A stretch of 32,000 bases of DNA from Candidatus Saccharimonadota bacterium (GCA_016700375.1 CP065016.1:300001-332000); one strand, 5' to 3'. Shown: positions 2,915-18,672, counted from the stretch's first letter. Translations and numbers: made by a program. Notes: generated from the letters alone by a model not told the origin.

Positions 2915-3053
2915 AAGGGGTTTTATGTACAATACATGGTAACCGTTTGAGGGCGAATGAAAACTGATTTGCAAGAAGTCACTTATCACCCGTCCTTAAG
3001 TATTAAGCGCAAAAATTTAGCTTACATAGTAAAGGACTGGACGTACATTACAC

Positions 3054-3098
3054 AATATATTCCGGGGTAGTCCGTCAGCTGACGGACGGGTGGCTGTA
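3054..3098 (+). repeat. Partial duplicate of the tRNA 5' half, with the D-arm replaced by the palindrome TCCGTCAGCTGACGGA
   Basis: AATATATTCCGGGGTAG (3054-3070) is identical to 3342-3358. CGGGTGGCTGTA (3087-3098) is identical to 3372-3383. The 13 nt CTCAGCGGTAGAG of the real D-arm are replaced by the 16-nt perfect palindrome at 3071-3086. Confidence 0.85.
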
Positions 3099-3109
3099 TA
3101 ATAAACTTC

Positions 3110-3358
3110 ATGCTTGAAGTTTATGTGCTTTACAATGCAGTTGCTAATAAGATATATATTGGTCAAACTAATAATCTGAAAGTGAGACTCGCTTCACATA
3201 ATAATAAAAGGGGCAACCACTTTACAGCGAAGTTTGAGGGTGATTGGGAGCTGATTTATTCTGAATCAGTCGCCACTCGCTCTGAAGCACTTCAGCGCGA
3301 AAGACAATTAAAATCGTCAAGGGGACGAGCGTTCGTTAAAAAATATATTCCGGGGTAG
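3110..3358 (+). CDS. Small stand-alone GIY-YIG nuclease domain protein (82 aa)
   Basis: The sequence MLEVYVLYN..NKIYIGQTNNLKVRLASHN...RSEALQRERQLK carries the GIY (VYVLY) and YIG (IYIGQT) motifs plus the conserved Arg and Glu of the GIY-YIG fold. Its stop codon TAG (3356-3358) lies inside the first 10 nt of the tRNA. Confidence 0.85.
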   Translation: MLEVYVLYNAVANKIYIGQTNNLKVRLASHNNKRGNHFTAKFEGDWELIYSESVATRSEALQRERQLKSSRGRAFVKKYIPG

Positions 3359-3679
3359 CTCAGCGGTAGAGCGGGTGGCTGTAAGTCGCCTTGAAGAGTT
3401 ACTTCATAAATAAATGCAGCCTACTTGGGCAATCAAGTAGTGAACATCGGGTGAATTGACGGGAAGCCTACATCGAAAGACAAGGTAATCCGCAGCCAAG
3501 CCTTGCTTAGGTTAAAAGAGCAGGGAAGGTTCAGAGACTAGAGAGTGAGCCTAACAATAATCTCTCGTAAGCGCCCGACAACCGTTATGCGACGGTTGAT
3601 AAGATAGTCCGCCCTTGCACGAAAGTACAAGATAAGCATAACCACTAGGTCGCTGGTTCGAATCCAGTCCCCGGAGCCA
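3349..3679 (+). tRNA. Intron-containing tRNA, body most like tRNA-Asn(GUU); CCA encoded
   Basis: Exon parts by hand: TCCGGGG TA GCTC AGCGGTA GAGC G GGTGG CTGT | intron | TAA CCACT AGGTC GCTGG TTCGAAT CCAGT CCCCGGA G CCA. All four stems pair. U1-A72, G73 and the overall sequence closely resemble bacterial tRNA-Asn as I remember it from E. coli and B. subtilis. The exact splice junction, and hence the anticodon, is not fully resolved (see findings). Confidence 0.8.
3383..3638 (+). ncRNA. Group I intron (~256 nt, no ORF) in the anticodon loop
   Basis: The four classical conserved elements are present in order. P: GAATTGACGGGAAGCC (~3453-3468). Q: AATCCGCAGCCAAGCC (~3487-3502). R: GTTCAGAGACTAGA (~3529-3542). 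S: AAGATAGTCCG (~3601-3611). A P9-like hairpin with a GAAA tetraloop lies at 3614-3631. The candidate P1 pairs exon GGCTGT with GCAGCC (3415-3420), with a U.G pair at the splice site. Confidence 0.85.
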
Positions 3680-3715
3680 AGAAAAGACGAGTCGTTTGGG
3701 CTCGTTTTTTCTTGG
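3677..3715. terminator. Bidirectional-looking rho-independent terminator after the tRNA
   Basis: CCAAGAAAAGACGAG (3677-3691) pairs with CTCGTTTTTTCTTGG (3701-3715) with one G.U position. T-runs are present on both strands. Confidence 0.6.
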
Positions 3716-3719
3716 CTCA

Positions 3720-3923
3720 GAGATTGGTTTGAAACTGCGACCAGCGAGCAAAGCGAGTGAGGTCGCTGGTTCGGTGAAGCGAAGCCACGCGCAGTCCATC
3801 TACTGACGGACGAGCATGGTTGAGGGGAGGAGTACAAAGTCCGCCATCCAGTCCTCGGCCCCAAAAACCAATCCCAGACGAACCCACCAGAGGGAACCAT
3901 ACCATCCCGGGTGAAATCACATT
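3720..3923 (-). ncRNA. Unclassified conserved non-coding element, copy A (candidate structured RNA; strand tentative)
   Basis: It aligns along its full length with 10133-10340. The end blocks are near-identical (GAGAYTGGTTTGAAAC ... CCAAAAACCAATCCCAGAYGAACCCACCAGAG ... TACCATCCCGGGTGAAATCACATT) and the centre is diverged. The conserved blocks fall in different reading frames in the two copies. A long-range helix GATTGGTTT (3722-3730) / AAACCAATC (3865-3873) and an internal TCCATC-TACT-GACGGA hairpin are present. Confidence 0.45.
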
Positions 3924-4013: not shown

Positions 4014-5022
4014 GGCTAACTGAAAGATTTTAGGGTACTCTTTCACCGTTTTTCTGTCATGCTGATTGCATGAAAAAAGATGTTCTCATTGTCATAGCAT
4101 ACGGATTAATCATGTAGGGATGCAGTCTGGGCGTCCACGGTACCTTTGTCGGGATTGCCGCAAGAAGTTTCAAGATAAACGCAGACAGATACGTTCATCG
4201 GTTGCCTTCATGCATTGGGATAGCTATGTCTGGGGAAAGCAAACAGTCGAGCAGCTGGCCAAAGAGCTTCGTGTCAGTGTTCCGGCCATGCGAGCGAAGC
4301 TTGACGCCTACAACATCCCACAGACGCTCCCGTACCAGGAATTACTACCCACCTCAACTACACTCGCTATCGACGCCTACTTCCGTTCACGCGGTGACGG
4401 TACCCTTATCTTCCGCTCACCTGAGCTACGACGTAATCTTCTCTGGTACGATATTCGGTACGAAACTGTCGAGGAGTATCTACGAGGTATCCGTTTGATG
4501 CAAGAAGCGGGTTGGGTATTCACTGGCTTTGTGGTTGATGGTCGTAAAGGCGTTGTCAAAGCTCTTTCTAGCCTTGCTCCGGTGCAGTACTGCCAGTTCC
4601 ATCAGAAGAAGACTATTCGGAACTATCTGACAAAGCATCCCAAAACAGATGCCGCTAGAAAGCTCAAAGACATCGTCGATCTTTTGACGCTGACCGACGA
4701 AGCCTCGTTCCGGGCATGGCTTGGAGTGTGGCATCATACATGGGACACATTCCTGAAAGAGAAAACGATTCACCCCGATGGGAGTACCAGCTACACTCAC
4801 AGAAGACTTAGAGCAGCTTACCGCAGCCTCAAGACAAATCTACCGAATTTGTTTACCTGCCACACGGTCGATAACCCACCAAACACGACGAATACGTTAG
4901 ATGGTAGTATTAGTCATCTCAGAACAATGCACCGAGTCCATAGAGGCATAAAATTACGACGACGCCGTAAAGTAACAGATACGCTCCTTCGAGGAAAGTA
5001 CCCTAAAAAGTTTCAATGAGCC
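4014..5022 (+). mobile_element. Insertion sequence (~1.0 kb, single ORF; IS1/IS1595-like by architecture)
   Basis: The imperfect terminal IRs are GGCTAACTGAAAGATTTTAGGGTACT (4014-) and the reverse complement of AGTACCCTAAAAAGTTTCAATGAGCC (-5022), sharing a 12-nt perfect core TTTTAGGGTACT. A direct repeat TTAAATC(Y) lies immediately outside both ends (4006-4013 and 5023-5030). Confidence 0.8.
4066..5019 (+). CDS. Transposase with N-terminal InsA-like zinc ribbon and DDE-type core
   Basis: The N-terminal C-x2-C ... RYLCRDCRKKFQ resembles the IS1 InsA / IS1595 zinc finger. VVDGRKGVVKAL...YCQFHQKKTIRNYL resembles the D-x-G...C-x2-H block of Mutator/IS256-type cores. The start is TTG and the stop lies inside the right IR. 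Family assignment is tentative. Confidence 0.7.
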   Translation: MHEKRCSHCHSIRINHVGMQSGRPRYLCRDCRKKFQDKRRQIRSSVAFMHWDSYVWGKQTVEQLAKELRVSVPAMRAKLDAYNIPQTLPYQELLPTSTTLAIDAYFRSRGDGTLIFRSPELRRNLLWYDIRYETVEEYLRGIRLMQEAGWVFTGFVVDGRKGVVKALSSLAPVQYCQFHQKKTIRNYLTKHPKTDAARKLKDIVDLLTLTDEASFRAWLGVWHHTWDTFLKEKTIHPDGSTSYTHRRLRAAYRSLKTNLPNLFTCHTVDNPPNTTNTLDGSISHLRTMHRVHRGIKLRRRRKVTDTLLRGKYPKKFQ

Positions 5023-5262
5023 TTAAATCCTCAAAAATACGAAACCACCCGTCGATACTGACGAAATAATCACAACTATCTTACCCGTGATCAATAGCAA
5101 TAACTGAGAAAAAAATTGTGAGTGGATACTTTGTGATATTCTCATACAAAAAGTGAACAACGTACTTAAAAGCACCAGCTAATGCAATGCTTTAATCGTT
5201 CGTGCAATAGCAACATAAGTATAATGTTTGGTGAGTGGCGGCACGGCCGCTATAATTAGACT

Positions 5263-6303
5263 GTGAGCAATACTACATACACTACTATTGATCTGTTTGC
5301 GGGGATAGGCGGTATCCGCAAAGGGTTCGAAGCAACTGGCAGATTTAGGACAATTTATGCCAATGATTTTGATAAGCACTGCAAGTTGACCTATGACGCC
5401 AATTTCAAAAACACACCCCTTACTGTCAAAGACATTCACGAAGTCGGACTAGTTAAGGACGGCGTTGAGTCGTTTGATTTTCTATTAGGCGGGTTTCCAT
5501 GCCAGGCATTTTCTGTTGCAGGCCACAAGCAGGGGCTTGACGATCACAAGGGACGAGGTATTCTCTTCGAAGAAATCGAACGCTTACTTAAAGAGGCAGC
5601 CGACACGCAGACCATACCTCCTCAGGGTTTCATGTTAGAAAATGTTAAGAATCTCCTTAATCATGACAATAAACGAACCTACCCTATTATTAAGCAAAGG
5701 CTCGAAGCGCTTGGTTATCACCTGGATGAAAGAGTTTACAACAGTCTAGATTTTGGTGTGCCACAAAACCGTGAAAGGGTGTACATTGTGGGCTTTCGTT
5801 CGCCTGAAGTCATGGCAGCATTCAAATGGCCTGAGATACCTGGTCGCGGTAATCTGCAAGTACAAGATTTGCTGGATTCAGAAGTTGACCCCGTTCATTA
5901 CTATGAGGGTAAGCCGCTTTATGATCGCATCAAGGATTATGTTACTTCTGACTCAACCGTTTATCAGTACCGCAGGAATTATGTACGCGAGAATGCCAAA
6001 GGAGTATCACCAACACTAATGGCGAATATGGGCATGGGTGGCCATAACGTGCCAATCATAAAAGATGCGTATGGCATACGTCGGCTCACTCCTTCTGAAT
6101 GCGGTCGTTTGCAGGGATACAATAATTTAGTAATACCTGCCGGGCTTTCATATCATCAAATCTATCGACAGATCGGCAACTCAGTTACCGTACCAGTGAT
6201 TAACGCTGTAGCTGAGGCAATGCTACAGGCACTCGATTCTGTAAAGAATAAAAAAATGTCTATACCCGAGATCACTAAGAGAGAGCTAGTATCCATTAAA
6301 TAA
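5263..6303 (+). CDS. DNA (cytosine-5) methyltransferase
   Basis: All canonical C5-MTase motifs are present: I IDLFAGIGG, IV GGFPCQAFS, VI ENVKNL, VIII QNRERVYIVG, X GNSVTVPV. The start is GTG, directly after a TATAAT-like box (5251-5256). Confidence 0.92.
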   Translation: MSNTTYTTIDLFAGIGGIRKGFEATGRFRTIYANDFDKHCKLTYDANFKNTPLTVKDIHEVGLVKDGVESFDFLLGGFPCQAFSVAGHKQGLDDHKGRGILFEEIERLLKEAADTQTIPPQGFMLENVKNLLNHDNKRTYPIIKQRLEALGYHLDERVYNSLDFGVPQNRERVYIVGFRSPEVMAAFKWPEIPGRGNLQVQDLLDSEVDPVHYYEGKPLYDRIKDYVTSDSTVYQYRRNYVRENAKGVSPTLMANMGMGGHNVPIIKDAYGIRRLTPSECGRLQGYNNLVIPAGLSYHQIYRQIGNSVTVPVINAVAEAMLQALDSVKNKKMSIPEITKRELVSIK

Positions 6304-6346
6304 TTATTTTCTTGACTACATTTCCGCTATATAGTAGCCTGGAATT

Positions 6347-6568
6347 ATGCAGGAAGATAAGCATGGCAAATTTAAGCGACTCGCAAAGCAGCGCGGAGAA
6401 CGTATACTAAAAGACTTACAATTATTGGGCAACTTATCCAACACGAATAATTACACCTACACTGAAGCGGACGTCAAAAAAATATTTGCCACCCTTGAAC
6501 AAGAGCTTAGGTTTTCTCGTTCACGTTTTCAAAAAACCATAAGCCGAAATAGGGGGATCGATATATGA
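6347..6568 (+). CDS. Small basic, probably helical protein (73 aa), no recognisable domain; first gene of a translationally coupled four-gene unit
   Basis: The ORF begins with ATG. Its stop overlaps the next start (ATGA at 6565-6568). I recognise no motif. Confidence 0.55.
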   Translation: MQEDKHGKFKRLAKQRGERILKDLQLLGNLSNTNNYTYTEADVKKIFATLEQELRFSRSRFQKTISRNRGIDI

Positions 6569-8454
6569 GCAGTGATCTTGGCTGGCGTTTCCCAGCACTG
6601 GACGATTCAGAGCGTGAAGGTATCAATGACTCCATTACTAAGGCATTTGCAGGTGATCACGAGCACTTTATAGCTCGTGAGTGTATACAGAATTCGATTG
6701 ACCACCGCCTGGATAAGACAGCCCCAGTCCGGGTAGAGTTTAGACTTAAAAGTTATCCTCGGTCAGTTTTCCCGGCTATAGACGAACTTGCCGATATAGT
6801 TGACTGTTGCATCAACGCGTCCAGCAGTTCTCGTGCAAAAGAGGAGCTGGCGGTTATTAAAAAGTCCGTATCCAGTCAGCAGATACGAACACTTACTGTA
6901 CGAGATTACAACACGGAGGGTCTAACTGGCGGAGATTATGATGAGGCCGGAAGCTGGCATAGGCTTGTGCGTGCCGTGGGTTCTAACGATCCATCGGGTG
7001 TAGGCGGTGGCTCTTACGGTCTTGGCAAGGGTGCTCCATTCGCAGCGTCAGGTATTCGTACTGTTTTTTATGCCACGTATAACGAAAAGAGTGAGAATGT
7101 TTTTCAGGGCAAAACACGACTAGTCAGCCATATGGGCTCAGATGGCAAGATGAAGCGAGGCGTAGGATTCTACGGTGCAAGATCAAATGACGCATGCCGA
7201 TCTATTCGTACAAAAGCAGAAATGCCTGCTGAATTCGTGAGGGGCGAACGCGGTACGGACATCATAATACCTGCCTATCGAGCAGTGTCAGACAACTGGC
7301 AGCTAGGTCTGGTGCATTCTGTTCTCAAGAATTTTTGGCCAGCAATACACGAACGCATGCTGGAAGTTGAAATTTACGACGGTAACGACTTAAAGCAAAA
7401 CATTAACGCCGAGAACCTAGCCGCTCTTCTTGAACAATATCCAGGCGAAGAAACGGGCAACGCCTACTATTACTTCTTGGCAAAGACCAGTCCTGATAAG
7501 GACGGCTATTTCAGCGAGCCAATCGATGGACTCGGCGAAGTCGAACTGTATATTAAGCGGGGTGATGATTATCCGAAAAAAGTTCAGCAAATGCGTGCGC
7601 CACTGATGGTGGTTTCTTCCGAACCTTACCGCCGTGCGTTACTTGATCCTTTTGCGGCAGTACTTATTTGCAGAGACGAAGAAGGCAACAATTTTCTCAA
7701 AGGGCTTGAGCCACCACAACATGATACATGGGATCCAACACTTGGCGACGATACCGACGTTATTAGAAATAATAAACGTATATATAAATCGCTGCAGGAT
7801 TGGGTACGAAGCAAACTAAAAAGTCTCTCGCGTGCTTCCGACGGAGAAGTCATGGAAATACCAGGATTGGCAGAATACTTAGCCAGCATGGAGCGTGATG
7901 ACCTTGCACTATTTGGCCGAGTGGACAAATCTGATGATGATCCAGATTCTGAGACTGATGTAGAGCGCATTATTCCCGTCAATTCTGCTGTATCGGCTCG
8001 TCGACCTCTACAGTACAGCCTCAATGCAGTTAAAGCTGATACTGGTCCTGATGAGGGCGGTAGTGGTGGTAGTGGTGGCGGTAGTGGCCGAGGGGGTGGA
8101 GGCCAGCCAAACCCGGGCGGAAGATCGCGTAGATTACAGAACCGTTCAACCATCCGCGTTAGGAATATCGGCATGACCCCCTCCGGCGAGTTTACAGATG
8201 TTGAGCTATGTCTTTACTCGAAGCAACCCTTCGAGGGCACGATCAGATTAGTCGCTGCGGGGGAAGATATGAATACGGGTATACGCGTACTACACGCTAA
8301 TGCGGATAGTAGCGGCGCGGCTTATCCTATCAAAAGCGGTCGCATACAAAACGTAAAGATTGATCCGTCTCGTCCTACAAGAATAACTGCTCGCATGGAC
8401 GGTAAGAATATTAGATACGCAATAGGAGTTGAGAGCCATAAAAACAATTCTTAG
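6565..8454 (+). CDS. GHKL-superfamily (Bergerat fold; HATPase_c_3 / MORC / sacsin-like) ATPase with Gly-rich linker and C-terminal beta-rich domain
   Basis: N box: FIARECIQNSIDH. G1-like box: VRDYNTEGLTGG. G2 box: GGGSYGLGKGAPF. After ~330 further residues comes an acidic stretch, then GGSGGSGGGSGRGGGGQPNPGG (nt ~8056-8120), then a ~110-aa beta-looking tail. No histidine-kinase H-box and no nuclease motif were recognised. Confidence 0.7.
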   Translation: MSSDLGWRFPALDDSEREGINDSITKAFAGDHEHFIARECIQNSIDHRLDKTAPVRVEFRLKSYPRSVFPAIDELADIVDCCINASSSSRAKEELAVIKKSVSSQQIRTLTVRDYNTEGLTGGDYDEAGSWHRLVRAVGSNDPSGVGGGSYGLGKGAPFAASGIRTVFYATYNEKSENVFQGKTRLVSHMGSDGKMKRGVGFYGARSNDACRSIRTKAEMPAEFVRGERGTDIIIPAYRAVSDNWQLGLVHSVLKNFWPAIHERMLEVEIYDGNDLKQNINAENLAALLEQYPGEETGNAYYYFLAKTSPDKDGYFSEPIDGLGEVELYIKRGDDYPKKVQQMRAPLMVVSSEPYRRALLDPFAAVLICRDEEGNNFLKGLEPPQHDTWDPTLGDDTDVIRNNKRIYKSLQDWVRSKLKSLSRASDGEVMEIPGLAEYLASMERDDLALFGRVDKSDDDPDSETDVERIIPVNSAVSARRPLQYSLNAVKADTGPDEGGSGGSGGGSGRGGGGQPNPGGRSRRLQNRSTIRVRNIGMTPSGEFTDVELCLYSKQPFEGTIRLVAAGEDMNTGIRVLHANADSSGAAYPIKSGRIQNVKIDPSRPTRITARMDGKNIRYAIGVESHKNNS

Positions 8455-9259
8455 AACCTATTCGCATCCAGTTCTTGGCAACGGAGATGATTTCAGTAAC
8501 CCATTCGATGTTGCATATGGCATTGAGGTATCCGAAGACAAGAGCGACTGGGTTATTGGGCTAAAGGTAGCAATGGATAATGAACAACTACAGAAGCTCG
8601 TTAGCACAGGATTAGCTGCATACCACCTTGAAGTTGAGTGCGGAAACACCTTCTACCGGTACTCGTTTGATACAAACCAGCAGACGGCACAGTTCACTAT
8701 TCCTACAACCCGGTTACGTGGCAAAGTTAAGCTCGATACGTTCATTGTTGCGCTTCAGCCTATTCAGGAATACAAGCCGACTGACGCACATGAGGACTAT
8801 GGGAGCCGTGCGTACAAAATTTCAACAGGAGATATTCTCGGAGTCGGAGGATCCCAGACATTTATTGCCGATACAGAGTTTGACCCTCTTCGTGCCTCAG
8901 CTAGTTCATTTATTAAAATCGAGCGAGGACCAAAAGCTAAAGGAAACATTATTGCCGAACATGGCTCCAGTGAAATAATCATACGACTGCCCCAGGAAGA
9001 CTATGATCGCTTTCAAGAAGTGGCAGGCCAAAAGCTGGTTGAAGATATTCTGCACGCGGCGATTGTATTTCCCGTTCTTGTTGAAGCCGTACAGTTCGCC
9101 CAGAACAAGAGAGGCAACGATTATAATGATCGTTTGCTCGCAATTCTTGAGCAGAGGGGGTTAATGAAAGAAGAAGCATTTGTGGCCGCACAGGAAATTT
9201 TACAGGCCCCGGTTTCCAGAGCTTTATCTAAGCTGCAACAGATAAGGGAGGCTGAGTAA
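8429..9259 (+). CDS. Hypothetical protein (276 aa), no recognisable domain
   Basis: It is a long ORF on the operon strand. The only canonical start in frame is TTG 8429, which overlaps the upstream gene by 26 nt, so the start is uncertain. Its stop overlaps the next start (TAATG at 9257-9261). Confidence 0.6.
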   Translation: MRAIKTILRTYSHPVLGNGDDFSNPFDVAYGIEVSEDKSDWVIGLKVAMDNEQLQKLVSTGLAAYHLEVECGNTFYRYSFDTNQQTAQFTIPTTRLRGKVKLDTFIVALQPIQEYKPTDAHEDYGSRAYKISTGDILGVGGSQTFIADTEFDPLRASASSFIKIERGPKAKGNIIAEHGSSEIIIRLPQEDYDRFQEVAGQKLVEDILHAAIVFPVLVEAVQFAQNKRGNDYNDRLLAILEQRGLMKEEAFVAAQEILQAPVSRALSKLQQIREAE

Positions 9260-10020
9260 TGAAGCTATTCAAATCATCATACTGTGCGGAACTTGCCGAA
9301 GCGGTGCGTCTTGGTAGCGGTCTTGAAGCATATGACAGCAGACAGTTTGAACCAGAGTCGGAGAAGTGCATTGATGGACCTGCCATAAAAACGAATGGCG
9401 ATGCACCCGTACTTGGGGGCAATAGTAATGACGCCTCAGCCGCTATTGCTGTATATGGCTATTTAGGTGAACTAAACGAACTGCAAGCTTCTGACAAACG
9501 GCTGTGGACCACACTTACTCACACCACATTTCGAGGGTACGTTATTGACAGATGGCCAGCCAAATCTGACGACGTAGAGGCAAAGAAAAACGCTGTAATG
9601 AGGCGCTGGTTTGCCGAGGGTGGCAGTGATCGTACGCTAGAAAATAACGCTATCGCCCGGCTTTGGTGGGGTGCTCGCCTTACATTTTCTCCATGGAAAG
9701 TAAATCCTGATGAGTTCGGCCACCTTGAACATGAAGATGACTTCTACTTTACTAAAAAGCTCTTTTCTTTACAGGAACTCATTAAAGTAACGATGGAGAG
9801 CAGTCTCGGACGATCAAGCAAGGTATTGATTGCCCTGCTAGCTTACCTGGACAAACATCCCGAACTAGTTAATAACGAAGACGTAGGCGACCTAATGAAA
9901 GAGCTTAACCTCATATCAGGTGCTAATAAAATTCTAGTTCTGAATGCAAAGGAGCTCGAGTCGTTAATCGAGGAAGCTGCCGACTCTTTATTTGAAGCGC
10001 GTACTTCTACTTACGCGTAG
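9259..10020 (+). CDS. Hypothetical protein (253 aa), Trp-rich helical, no recognisable domain
   Basis: The ATG start is coupled to the upstream stop. There is a conserved-looking central block, LWTTLTHTTFRGYVIDRW...MRRWFAEGG...NNAIARLWWGARL. The gene is followed by a terminator. Confidence 0.6.
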   Translation: MKLFKSSYCAELAEAVRLGSGLEAYDSRQFEPESEKCIDGPAIKTNGDAPVLGGNSNDASAAIAVYGYLGELNELQASDKRLWTTLTHTTFRGYVIDRWPAKSDDVEAKKNAVMRRWFAEGGSDRTLENNAIARLWWGARLTFSPWKVNPDEFGHLEHEDDFYFTKKLFSLQELIKVTMESSLGRSSKVLIALLAYLDKHPELVNNEDVGDLMKELNLISGANKILVLNAKELESLIEEAADSLFEARTSTYA

Positions 10021-10090: not shown

Positions 10091-10123
10091 AAAAAGAGTC
10101 GGGCTGAAAGTCTGGCTCTTTTT
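10091..10123 (+). terminator. Rho-independent terminator of the cassette
   Basis: AAAAAGAGTCGGGC-TGAAA-GTCTGGCTCTTTTT. Three G.U pairs make the stem stronger on the + strand. Confidence 0.6.
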
Positions 10124-10132
10124 ATTTATCCC

Positions 10133-10340
10133 GAGACTGGTTTGAAACAGTGACAGAAATTTTGCCAGATGCGAAAGATCTTAGTTGCTGGCTCGGTGAA
10201 GCGAGGGCACACACAGTCCGTCGGTTGACGCACGAGCATGGGAAGGCGGAAGAGCACAGCGGCCCAGTCCCTGGGAGCCAAAAACCAATCCCAGATGAAC
10301 CCACCAGAGTAAAACGTACCATCCCGGGTGAAATCACATT
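10133..10340 (-). ncRNA. Unclassified conserved non-coding element, copy B (paralogue of 3720-3923)
   Basis: The alignment is as described for copy A. On the minus strand a promoter-like CTTACA (10367-10372) - 17 nt - GATAAT (10344-10349) sits just upstream of the conserved block. The long-range helix has a U.G pair only when read on the minus strand; it is a C.A mismatch on the plus strand. Confidence 0.45.
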
Positions 10341-16226: not shown

Positions 16227-17454
16227 CTAGCGTTTTGTATATAGTGTCTTCAACAACTGGTCTTTTGCTTTGTTCATGGCTATCGCCCAAGCTGTATCAC
16301 TTTCAGCATACGCCACTTCGTCTAGTTTCTCAAAACTGCTGCCTGTCTTCAGGTATTGTTTGGCGTCTGGCAATGACTTCAGCTTCTCGTACGGTACCAT
16401 GTACCCATTGACTGGGTAGCGATGTGTCCTCTTGCCCGTCTTTGAGTCAACGCTCGTTATGCGGTAACCGCAGGGTCGGTGGAAGTTCAGGTAGGGCACA
16501 AACCACGTACAGTACCAGCTGTTAATATCCGGAGCATATTCCCTGGGTATATGCGCATAGCCTAGGGCTTTTCGGATAATGCTACCATTCTTGGTTTCAA
16601 CCAATCCATTGTCTCCGCTTTGGTAGGCTCGAGACTTACTGAGCTTGATGAGCATTGCTTTCAGGAGGGCAGCAACTTGTTTGTTGATGTACTCCGAGCC
16701 ATTGTCGGCGTGGAATTCTACAATGACAAATGGGAACAGCACCAAAGCTGCTTCGAGGGCTGGCAGCATGTAACGCTCAGTGATTCTCTCGACCGCGACC
16801 ACCACCTCCCACTGGGTAACTTCATCAACCAGATTGATGTGGTACACACCCTTTTCTTTGTCCTTATCTCCCTGGTGGACAGTATCTATACGGATGAAGC
16901 CAGGTTGACCGTTCGGGCGTGGTTTGCGGCGCTCGCCAATAGCTATTGTTGTTGCTTGCGTTTTGGTGAACGTATGGCTTTGGTTACGGTATGTTACGGT
17001 GCCACGTAGATTGTATATGTGGCTGACGGAGATTGCGCTAAGTCGTTCGTAGCGTGCATCGCCAAATGTCACAAAGGCTCGTTGGGCTAGAACTTTTGCC
17101 GCTTTGCCACTGAGCCGATCATGGGCATCATCCAGCTCTGCTAGCAGCCCAATGTCTTCACGCGTGTAGCGCAGTGCAAACTGGTTTCTCATGTTCACTG
17201 GCTCCAGCGCAATACAGCCAGTCCGCAGGTACTGTCCAATAAGCCGAGTCACCTGGGCACGGCTGTACCCCGTGACGGCTATGGCGTATTCTCGAACGAC
17301 GCCTTTGTCTTTTTTGCCCAAGTGCTGGTAGTCAAGACGAACGACCAGTTGCTGTAACCAGGCATAAGCCTCTTGCTTATGTACGATTGTAAGGTCAAGT
17401 GACTGAGTGCCTGAGACAAACTGTCTGAGTTCTTCAATAGTTGGTAGCGTGTGT
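16227..17454 (-). pseudogene. DDE (rve, integrase-core) transposase gene, separated from its first four codons by the IS3 insertion
   Basis: The rve core is DTVHQGD...VDEVTQW...FHADNGSEY...SGDNGLVETKNG. The frame stays open upstream of the tracked TTG as far as the IS3 boundary. Removing 17455-18678 joins it in frame to ATG CAG CAA CAC (18686-18675), which is preceded by GGGAGG, giving a 411-codon ORF. Confidence 0.8.
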
Positions 17455-17791: not shown

Positions 17792-18672
17792 CTGCCCTGG
17801 ACGAGGTCGACCCAGGGTGGCGCAAGCAATACAGCAAGCTCCTGGGCCTTGGCCGGACAAGCTACTATGTTCGTCCAGCGAAACAAGCAGAAACCGACCG
17901 ACAGGCTATTGCGCGGCTACAGGCAGCCCACGAACTCCACCCATTCTACGGCGTCGACCGGTTAGCACTGCACCTTGGCTGGAACAAAAAGAAAACCAGA
18001 CGTATCCGTACGCTTGCGGGTGTTATCATACCGACACCAACTAAGAAGCGTCGGAGCGGTTGGTCTGCAGCAGCAGAGATTAGCGCACCGCCTAACGCTC
18101 TACAGTGCTACGCTCGTCTTAAAGACGAGCTGCGGCCACAGGACGGTCAAAGCTATGCCGACATGGTCAATGCTCATGCGTGGGCGCAGGACTTTACATA
18201 CCTGTGGTTCGAGAAGCGCTGGCACTATCTGGCGGTGGTGCTCGACCTGAAAACCAGGCAAGTGGTTGGTTGGCGGCTCGGTACACGACATACCAGCGAG
18301 CTGACCCACGAGGCACTACTCGATGCACTCAGCAAGCATCCAGCGCCAGCAATCCTCCACTCTGATCAAGGTTCTGAATACTTGAGCTACAGGCACCAAG
18401 ACCTCTGCAACAAAATGGAAATCCAACTTAGTGCGAGCACCAAAGCCAGCCCCTGGCAGAATGGTTTCATGGAGCGATGGTTTGGTGGCTTCAAGCGCGA
18501 AGTCTGCAACCTGACACAATACAAAAACTTAGCGGCACTCCACGAAGCCATTGCCCTGCACATCTACTATTACAACCATAAGCGTATCCACAGCGCATTA
18601 AAGATGAGCCCGGCAGCTTACGCTGCCAGTCTCAACAAGAGAGACAGGGTGTTCGCTAAAAGGGGAGGTTGA
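17779..18672 (+). CDS. IS3 OrfB (rve/DDE), reached by programmed -1 frameshift from OrfA
   Basis: The -1 frame is open from 17779 with no start codon until 18163. The slippery heptamer C CCA AAA lies at 17779-17785, just before the orfA stop. The DDE core is DFTYLWF...LHSDQGSEY...WQNGFMERWF. Confidence 0.85.
   Translation, partial: PKRLAALDEVDPGWRKQYSKLLGLGRTSYYVRPAKQAETDRQAIARLQAAHELHPFYGVDRLALHLGWNKKKTRRIRTLAGVIIPTPTKKRRSGWSAAAEISAPPNALQCYARLKDELRPQDGQSYADMVNAHAWAQDFTYLWFEKRWHYLAVVLDLKTRQVVGWRLGTRHTSELTHEALLDALSKHPAPAILHSDQGSEYLSYRHQDLCNKMEIQLSASTKASPWQNGFMERWFGGFKREVCNLTQYKNLAALHEAIALHIYYYNHKRIHSALKMSPAAYAASLNKRDRVFAKRGG

Follow-up and report, generated by a model that had tools for sequence, protein, structure and literature searches.

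A mobile five-gene cassette in Candidatus Saccharibacteria links a C5 DNA cytosine methyltransferase to a predicted GHKL ATPase and its PDC-M33 partners

A stretch of 32,000 nucleotides from a Candidatus Saccharibacteria genome (GCA_016700375.1, CP065016.1:300001-332000), hereafter the window, contains a cassette of five overlapping or closely spaced open reading frames (ORFs), all on the plus strand, that spans positions 5263 to 10020. Coordinates of genes and features refer to the whole window unless another locus is named. The first gene (5263 to 6303, GTG start) encodes a C5 DNA cytosine methyltransferase of the Dcm type (346 amino acids [aa]) and is followed by genes for a small protein, S (6347 to 6568; 73 aa), a predicted GHKL ATPase, A (6565 to 8454; 629 aa), and two further proteins, B (8429 to 9259; 276 aa) and C (9259 to 10020; 253 aa). 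Together they form a single mobile operon of approximately 4.85 kb. An original prediction, made from the sequence alone, had proposed five coupled same-strand genes at this position, and ORF calling recovered all of the genes and junctions as described. S is translationally coupled to A through an ATGA overlap (6565 to 6568), and B and C have the sequence TAATG (9257 to 9261) in common. A TATAAT box, read by eye, lies just 5' of the methyltransferase gene (5251 to 5256), and the operon is closed by a terminator-like hairpin with a T-run on the plus strand (10101 to 10127, with the hairpin and T-run at 10101 to 10118), again as had been predicted.

The start of B is ambiguous. Its first start codon, TTG at 8429, lies just 1 nucleotide past an AGGAG sequence (8423 to 8427), and taking this codon as the start gives a 26-nucleotide overlap between A and B. 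Homologs of B start at the position of an ATA codon at 8438, which is 10 nucleotides past AGGAG, an ideal spacing, and gene calls for B in close relatives give a protein of 273 aa. The homolog starts and the spacing suggest that B either uses a non-canonical ATA start here or has a shifted start in this genome.

The methyltransferase is complete. It matched Pfam PF00145 (DNA_methylase) over positions 1 to 323 of 324 (E = 1.8e-71), TIGR00675 (dcm; E = 2.1e-80), and the PADLOC model MTase_II (E = 3.2e-99). The three genes at the other end of the operon matched the PADLOC models PDC-M33A (E = 8.8e-116, positions 3 to 625 of 627), PDC-M33B (E = 2.7e-51, positions 6 to 283 of 289), and PDC-M33C (E = 9.8e-33, positions 64 to 243 of 247), all of them full-length matches, and the genes are adjacent, on the same strand, and in the same A>>B>>C order. 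The original prediction had stated that the cassette matched no nameable defense system; this did not survive the searches, and the cassette is not new. It had already been catalogued computationally as PDC-M33 in 2024, and links of GHKL/paraMORC ATPases to restriction-modification (R-M) genes were described in 2008.

PDC-M33 is one of 145 phage defense candidates (PDCs) reported by Payne et al. (2024; bioRxiv 10.1101/2024.01.29.577857), which were drawn from cassettes nested in BREX, DISARM, or type I R-M loci (“guilt by embedding”). The supplement of that study lists it as CAS_00129 (FAM_02818>>FAM_02838>>FAM_01881), with 98 RefSeq instances and the comment “assign as candidate,” and the main text makes no mention of GHKL, HATPase, or MORC. 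Later papers describe most PDCs as unvalidated, and our literature searches found no publication that names PDC-M33 or DUF6339 in its text. The published definition consists of the three genes A, B, and C, without the C5 methylase, Vsr, and S protein that we found with them. What the present analysis adds is the contiguity of A-B-C, the near-constant C5 methylase, the frequent Vsr, the S protein, the predicted immunoglobulin-like fold of B, and the swapping of methylases between cassettes.

Protein A, which is 100% identical to an NCBI hypothetical protein, is predicted to be a GHKL ATPase. The three Bergerat-fold boxes noticed in the original prediction correspond to E39/N43/D46, D114-x-N-T-x-G119, and G148-G-S-x-G-x-G-K155 (alignments of 26 and 76 homologs), with motif II in the variant form D-x-N-T-x-G-L in place of DxGxG; residues E39, N43, D46, D114, G119, G149, G152, and G154 are invariant in the 76 homologs. 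In an AlphaFold model built on the homolog alignment (mean predicted local distance difference test [pLDDT] score of 81), the Bergerat-fold ATP-binding domain occupies residues 1 to 245 (6565 to 7299), a boundary taken from the secondary structure of the model. Residues 246 to 425 (7300 to 7839) comprise an S5-like transducer domain with R344, an E382-x3-H386 motif, and a long helix. R344 is invariant in the 76 homologs, and E382 and H386 (codons 7708 to 7710 and 7720 to 7722), which come right after the last transducer strand and helix, are invariant too. A Gly/Ser-rich segment (residues 440 to 526; 7882 to 8142) is predicted to be disordered (pLDDT below 50) and shows low identity in every pairwise comparison. 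It leads to a C-terminal beta-sandwich (residues 530 to 629; 8152 to 8451) whose final strand carries a conserved R-Y-A-L-G-V-E and which gave weak Foldseek matches to CBM2-like and mu-homology-like folds. The poly-Gly/Ser linker and beta-rich tail read from the sequence thus reappear in the model.

Foldseek comparison of the model with the PDB gave Hsp90 (2.5e-9), TopoVI-B (4e-8), GyrB (5e-7), and MORC4 (4e-5), as well as GRP94. Alignments to Hsp90, GyrB, and MORC4 covered approximately 450 columns, corresponding to the ATP-binding and transducer (middle) domains. None of 26 members of the A family matched Pfam HATPase_c or HATPase_c_3, even at E values of ≤5, and PDB sequence searches with A, as a single sequence and as a profile, returned no match; the family has diverged too far in sequence for the Pfam HATPase models to detect it. 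The label “MORC-like” that A had been given is not specific. MORC4 ranks seventh among the fold matches (template modeling score of 0.53 on the target), and the best matches are Hsp90 and TopoVI-B. The sequence preceding R344, GDDYPKKVQQMR, is unlike the MORC-specific S5 motif GhXhhpXXRhl, as judged by eye. A has the fold over about 450 residues, the ATP-binding residues, and the transducer arginine in common with MORC, MutL, Hsp90, GyrB, and TopoVI-B, but it lacks the MutL endonuclease domain and the coiled coil or CW domain of MORC. We therefore describe A as a GHKL ATPase by its predicted fold and not as specifically MORC-like.

A probably belongs to paraMORC2, an assignment that is made by match to the published description and not by a reference sequence. 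Iyer, Abhiman, and Aravind (2008; PMC2292703) described paraMORC2 as a GHKL family with a strongly conserved ExxxH at the C-terminal end of the S5 domain and found paraMORC2 to -5 in neighborhoods with DNA (mostly cytosine) methylases and Vsr. A resembles this family in its GHKL and S5 domains, its ExxxH motif (E382/H386), its cytosine methylase and Vsr neighbors, and its sporadic distribution. The same paper stresses superfamily II helicase and restriction endonuclease-fold partners, which are absent around A-B-C. We found no other papers that use the name paraMORC2.

The original prediction regarded the three partners of A as proteins of unknown fold, and for two of them more can now be said. 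B was modeled by AlphaFold (pLDDT of 87) as two Ig/FN3-like beta-sandwiches (residues ~26 to 187) followed by a helical C-terminal domain (residues 189 to 275). Fold searches of the PDB and BFVD returned solely weak, generic Ig/FN3 or glycosidase-sandwich matches. B has a conserved N-terminal YPHPVLG and few invariant residues (P14, T74, R77, and G134 among them), none of which points to catalysis. By the tests made, B appears to be an Ig-like protein with a helical tail and not a nuclease. A putative PD-(D/E)xK site in B (H-x-D-Y...I-x-K-G-D) was rejected because the Lys is not conserved (T133 in the window protein) and the predicted fold is Ig-like, and a role as a phage structural protein was set aside, the viral matches being just generic Ig/FN3 hits, all with E values above 1e-3.

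C belongs to Pfam DUF6339 (E = 3.7e-38). It is rich in Trp and Arg, with the motifs QASDxRLWxYLTH and ARLWW, and in an alignment of homologs, Trp, Tyr, and Arg residues are invariant, with D79, H88, and E180 nearly so. Among 1.84 billion representative proteins, DUF6339 formed 922 clusters, nearly all of them stand-alone proteins of ~250 aa, and no recurrent domain fusions were found. The sole fusion seen was in another Saccharibacteria locus (L037, 2855 to 4399), where the C homolog ends in two topoisomerase-I-type C4 zinc ribbons, a hint that C may bind DNA. A HEPN-like R-x6-H motif in C (R81...H88) was rejected as a catalytic site; homologs at loci L071 and L076 lack the R or the H.

S has no relatives in Pfam or the PDB that we could find by single-sequence or profile searches, and to this extent the prediction of an unknown fold stands. 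Its residues F9, R16, N32, and Y36 are invariant, and by eye we read it as a helical hairpin. A homolog of S lies directly upstream of A in many of the loci described below, and S is a fourth conserved component outside the definition of PDC-M33.

In searches of Pfam, NCBIfam, PHROGs, PADLOC, and PDB sequences, none of the proteins S, A, B, and C showed the signature of a nuclease or helicase, in agreement with the original prediction; single-sequence and profile searches of Pfam, NCBIfam, PHROGs, and PDB sequences gave DUF6339 as the sole match to any of the four. No nuclease was found by family or fold in S, A, and B or by sequence in C. The original prediction had also judged that the cassette does not fit BREX, DISARM, Dnd/Ssp, Mza, Wadjet, Lamassu, Gabija, or Septu. 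This proved correct: searches with PADLOC-DB and NCBIfam detected no signature proteins (PglZ, BrxC, DrmA/B, DptFGH, MzaA-E, JetABCD, etc.) of BREX, DISARM, Dnd-Dpt, Ssp, Mza, Druantia, Wadjet, Lamassu, Gabija, or Septu. In PADLOC-DB, A, B, and C matched solely PDC-M33; the methylase matched generic methylase models, including DrmMII and DruM.

A scan of 185,579 species-representative genomes (one genome per species) detected relatives of A in at least 540, and the best 80 loci among these were analyzed by ORF calling and iterated hidden Markov model searches. All 80 encode A by selection, 76 encode B, and 73 encode C, and the three genes are contiguous in 73 to 76 loci, always in the order A-B-C with their ends overlapping or abutting. 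A C5 methylase (PF00145) was found in 70 to 71 of the 80 loci, S directly upstream of A in 49 to 51, Vsr in 36, often within the same gene chain as A-B-C, and an HhH-GPD glycosylase in 5; in Paenibacillus-type and Haloarcula loci the glycosylase adjoins the methylase. Apart from Vsr, no recurrent nuclease or helicase family or other extra gene was detected near A-B-C in these loci, and there were no consistently linked replication or partition genes. The hosts include members of the candidate phyla radiation, Gammaproteobacteria, Alphaproteobacteria, Bacteroidota, Planctomycetota, Verrucomicrobiota, Acidobacteriota, Firmicutes, Deinococcus, and haloarchaea. The gene order is thus conserved in unrelated genomes.

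The link to a C5 methylase is also strongly conserved. Of the 48 loci in which A-B-C is complete and flanked by 3 kb or more in each direction, 46 have a C5 methylase, and in the two that do not, no other methylase was present among the neighbors tested. The methylase is part of the same tight, same-strand chain in approximately 50 of the 80 loci, and in approximately 20 it lies within 14 nucleotides of the start of A or overlaps it. Its position, strand, and family vary between loci.

Two individual loci bear on how this linkage is built. In one close relative (L086, 4282 to 5739), two ORFs of 99 and 223 aa stand in place of a single methylase gene, and the genes for Vsr, S, A, B, and C are whole. 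The split may be a true pseudogene, which would mean that A-B-C can be tolerated when the methylase is lost, or it may come from a frameshift error in an assembly whose record name suggests nanopore sequencing. On a Priestia plasmid (L083, 5725 to 13124), S-A-B-C adjoins an endonuclease of the MutH/Sau3AI family and, on the opposite strand, a dcm gene, an arrangement from which it follows that in some loci the neighboring C5 methylase may be part of a complete type II R-M system and not of the triad.

The cassette is mobile. Three relatives in Saccharibacteria (A proteins 71 to 80% identical) have the same five genes in different surroundings, beside conjugative-transfer genes or a serine recombinase, and their DNA homology to the window starts near 5162 and stops near 10016, which are the borders of the cassette. 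The A family occurs on 26 plasmids, one of which, the Lactococcus conjugative plasmid pS127, carries A-B-C without a C5 methylase between an AlwI R-M system and AbiGI/AbiGII. A temperate Clostridium innocuum phage encodes S-A-B-C and a C5 methylase fused to a helix-turn-helix domain beside its integrase. Chromosomal copies of the cassette, set among housekeeping genes, were seen as well. In Haloarcula (L088, 1 to 12741), two paralogous A-B-C triads on opposite strands surround a C5 methylase, an HhH-GPD glycosylase, and an AspBHI_N/Mrr_cat type IV enzyme, forming an archaeal island in which 5-methylcytosine (5mC) writing and 5mC-dependent restriction stand together with two triads.

A, B, and C have evolved together. 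Their pairwise similarities are correlated (Spearman coefficients of 0.85, 0.68, and 0.63), and the similarity of the methylase follows that of A, B, and C weakly (0.30 to 0.40). In natural swap pairs, the A, B, and C proteins are 65 to 77% identical and the methylases are 29% identical, with approximately 0 to 13% identity in their target-recognition regions. Methylases of unrelated sequence have been exchanged between closely related A-B-C sets. Sliding-window identity within swap pairs revealed no localized variable segment in A, B, or C except the disordered linker of A, which is equally variable in a pair with 72% identical methylases. A-B-C therefore cannot act in the manner of a classical sequence-specific restriction enzyme: it has no counterpart of a target-recognition domain and probably does not itself read the target sequence of the methylase.

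With the methylase link so strongly conserved across phyla, a methylation-linked system for distinguishing self from nonself is the most economical reading of the cassette. We favor, at slightly better than even confidence, the view that it is an R-M-like mobile defense or addiction module in which a GHKL-driven complex interferes with unmarked DNA. We infer this role from the strict methylase linkage, the coupling within the operon, the mobility, the carriage on a prophage and in plasmid defense islands, and the origin of PDC-M33 in cassettes embedded in known systems. The methylase would mark resident DNA with 5mC, and an ATP-driven dimer of A, assembled with B, C, and usually S, would act on DNA that lacks the mark. 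If methylation is the mark of self, the absence of a segment that co-varies with the methylase would mean either that A-B-C senses 5mC status independently of the sequence around it or that it does so through the conserved core of the methylase, which would then be the reader. Interference might take the form of cleavage by an unrecognized active site, with the ExxxH motif of A and the D/H/E residues of C as candidates, or else of nuclease-free clamping or compaction of DNA.

Several observations weigh against this view. Sequence and fold searches recognized no known effector, be it a nuclease, a helicase, or another type, in S, A, B, or C, and the literature searched contained no experimental work on PDC-M33 or any of its members. 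There is no nearby methylase at L049, at L054, at the Deinococcus locus L089, or on the Lactococcus plasmid, so methylation may not be obligatory for A-B-C. The wider neighborhood of the cassette in the window is not a defense island. The Vsr (36 of 80 loci) or HhH-GPD glycosylases in many loci, together with a MutL-like A, fit a role in DNA repair equally well.

In such a role, the main rival to our reading, A-B-C, with or without S, would be MutL-like machinery that accompanies mobile Dcm methylases and helps Vsr or T:G glycosylases to repair the T:G mismatches left by deamination of 5mC, and it would have no part in immunity. A would then act as a GHKL and S5-type ATPase of the MutL/Hsp90/topoisomerase assemblage. 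MutL of Escherichia coli stimulates Vsr. Repair of this kind would not require recognition of a particular methylase, and the lack of a segment that co-varies with the methylase is in keeping with this. The presence of Vsr in the same gene chain and of glycosylases beside the methylase in the Paenibacillus-type and Haloarcula loci is also what this explanation would lead one to expect, and a MutL/VSR analogy was drawn by Iyer et al. (PMC2292703). However, more than half of the loci, the window included, have neither Vsr nor a glycosylase, no mismatch-binding (MutS-like) component is present, and the family has been found embedded in known defense systems and, on the lactococcal plasmid, between R-M and Abi genes without any C5 methylase. 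On balance we consider a repair accessory unlikely.

Alternatively, PDC-M33 may be an autonomous defense or abortive infection system that is co-mobilized with methylases or R-M systems, or guards them, and does not use the methylase as its self-marker. There is a precedent for a guard in PrrC, which guards type I R-M systems. PDC-M33 is defined by A-B-C alone and occurs nested in other systems, loci without a methylase exist, and the varying position, strand, and family of the methylase, together with its weak correlation with A, B, and C, would agree with a loose partnership. A methylase in 46 of 48 well-flanked loci is nevertheless far above what loose co-mobilization would give, and so is hard to square with autonomy, as is its placement within 14 nucleotides of A or overlapping it in about 20 loci. 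Moreover, the linked enzyme is always a C5 methylase, with no other methylase among the neighbors tested at the two well-flanked exceptions. We would give autonomous action a small chance of being correct.

A further possibility concerns immunity without a nuclease. A GHKL clamp made up of two copies of A with B, C, and S might load on DNA and be released or held off by 5mC in any context, so that an unmethylated invader is entrapped or compacted and not cut. Release by 5mC in any sequence context would allow any C5 methylase to serve as the self-marker. We regard this specific mechanism as rather improbable. If true, a nuclease-free, 5mC-sensing clamp would give prokaryotes an equivalent of the connection between MORC ATPases and DNA methylation in eukaryotes.

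It is very doubtful that A-B-C acts in the manner of a type IV enzyme, attacking foreign DNA with modified cytosines while the linked methylase has a non-overlapping specificity or some other role. The invariant Trp, Tyr, and Arg residues of C could form a pocket for a modified base, and the Haloarcula island joins two triads and a C5 methylase to an AspBHI/Mrr type IV enzyme, but type IV enzymes are not normally coupled to methylases in operons, a system coupled so tightly to diverse C5 methylases would be in danger of attacking its own host's DNA, and fold searches found no reader fold (SRA, EVE, YTH, or MBD) in A or B. A function for the mobile element itself, in DNA topology, segregation, or the control of conjugative transfer with the methylase as an anti-restriction device, is suggested by the conjugation genes and recombinases beside the cassette in close relatives and by the service of other GHKL ATPases in topology and chaperoning, but it too is very improbable given the chromosomal cassettes among housekeeping genes and the lack of consistently linked replication or partition genes in the 80 loci.

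Comparison with characterized systems places the proposed R-M-like module among several partial analogs. Dcm-Vsr modules and type II R-M systems likewise combine a C5 methylase, often with Vsr, in a tight and mobile operon, but the A-B-C cassette has no recognizable restriction endonuclease and no sequence-specific element that co-varies with the methylase. BREX, DISARM, and MANTIS/Gao_RL are multigene systems with a methylase as the presumed self-marker and ATPases in the interference arm, as is proposed here; their methylases are integral, co-evolving subunits, whereas the methylase of the present cassette is freely exchanged. We know of no nuclease identified in BREX. MANTIS/Gao_RL was rejected as the identity of the cassette on its composition, which differs, and HEF_HK/paraMORC two-component-like genes were rejected on their architecture. 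BsuMI- and LlaJI-type multisubunit C5 R-M systems and MADS were also considered. Experiments have shown that anti-phage defense by the Vibrio cholerae protein VcSduA (GHKL-Shedu, type I-D Shedu) requires its GHKL ATPase, which has been modeled as a dimeric clamp (PMC12137116). VcSduA consists of one polypeptide that ends in a PD-(D/E)xK DUF4263 nuclease, and it has no methylase; A, in contrast, has no nuclease domain, three partners, and a linked methylase.

If the defense interpretation is true, the cassette represents a widespread methylation-linked immune module with copies also on plasmids, in the genome of a temperate phage, and among haloarchaea. A module with no recognizable nuclease and no sequence-reading element of its own would raise the question of how one conserved machine works with interchangeable cytosine methylases, and it bears on the old proposal that the MORC ATPases of eukaryotes have their origin in GHKL components of R-M systems in prokaryotes. 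For annotation, the definition of PDC-M33 could be extended by the methylase, Vsr, and S, and the A family merits the GHKL label that the Pfam models miss.

The surroundings of the cassette in the window are mostly consistent with the original prediction, which had placed it next to a tRNA and an insertion sequence (IS), bracketed by repeats, and in DNA more AT-rich than its flanks. The GC content of the cassette is 0.43 to 0.48, compared with approximately 0.50 to 0.55 in most of the remaining window. An IS of the IS256 Zn-variant type (4014 to 5022, plus strand; NCBIfam NF048019, E = 9.6e-78) with 26-nucleotide inverted repeats immediately precedes the cassette. Direct repeats of ~220 nucleotides on the plus strand (3706 to 3923 and 10119 to 10340), 78% identical over 163 nucleotides, bracket this IS and the cassette.

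The repeats contain strings like the T-arm and acceptor 3' half of a tRNA. They had no match in Rfam and are absent from the related Saccharibacteria loci, and two conserved sub-strings gave 0 matches in metagenome scans. A two-sequence fold shows a conserved terminal helix, for which the covariation evidence from two copies is too thin. An old duplication of an att site and a lineage-specific RNA are both candidates for their origin.

The tRNA gene (3349 to 3683, plus strand) is split by a group I intron (3395 to 3631; Rfam RF00028, 103.8 bits). ARAGORN reported no tRNA in the window but recognized this one after in silico excision of the intron. Which anticodon results depends on where exactly splicing occurs; joining of the exons at 3380|3637 would give CAU. 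The 3' end of a small ORF for a GIY-YIG nuclease (3125 to 3352; Pfam E = 2.9e-16) lies within the 5' end of the tRNA. The segment from 2945 to 3098 is a diverged duplicate of 3232 to 3383, which holds the 3' end of the GIY-YIG gene and the 5' half of the tRNA up to the intron insertion point, so the region from 2945 to 3383 looks like a tandem duplication of this unit. Downstream of the cassette, two more ORFs encode transposases with an integrase core (rve) at 16227 to 17321 and 18163 to 18672.

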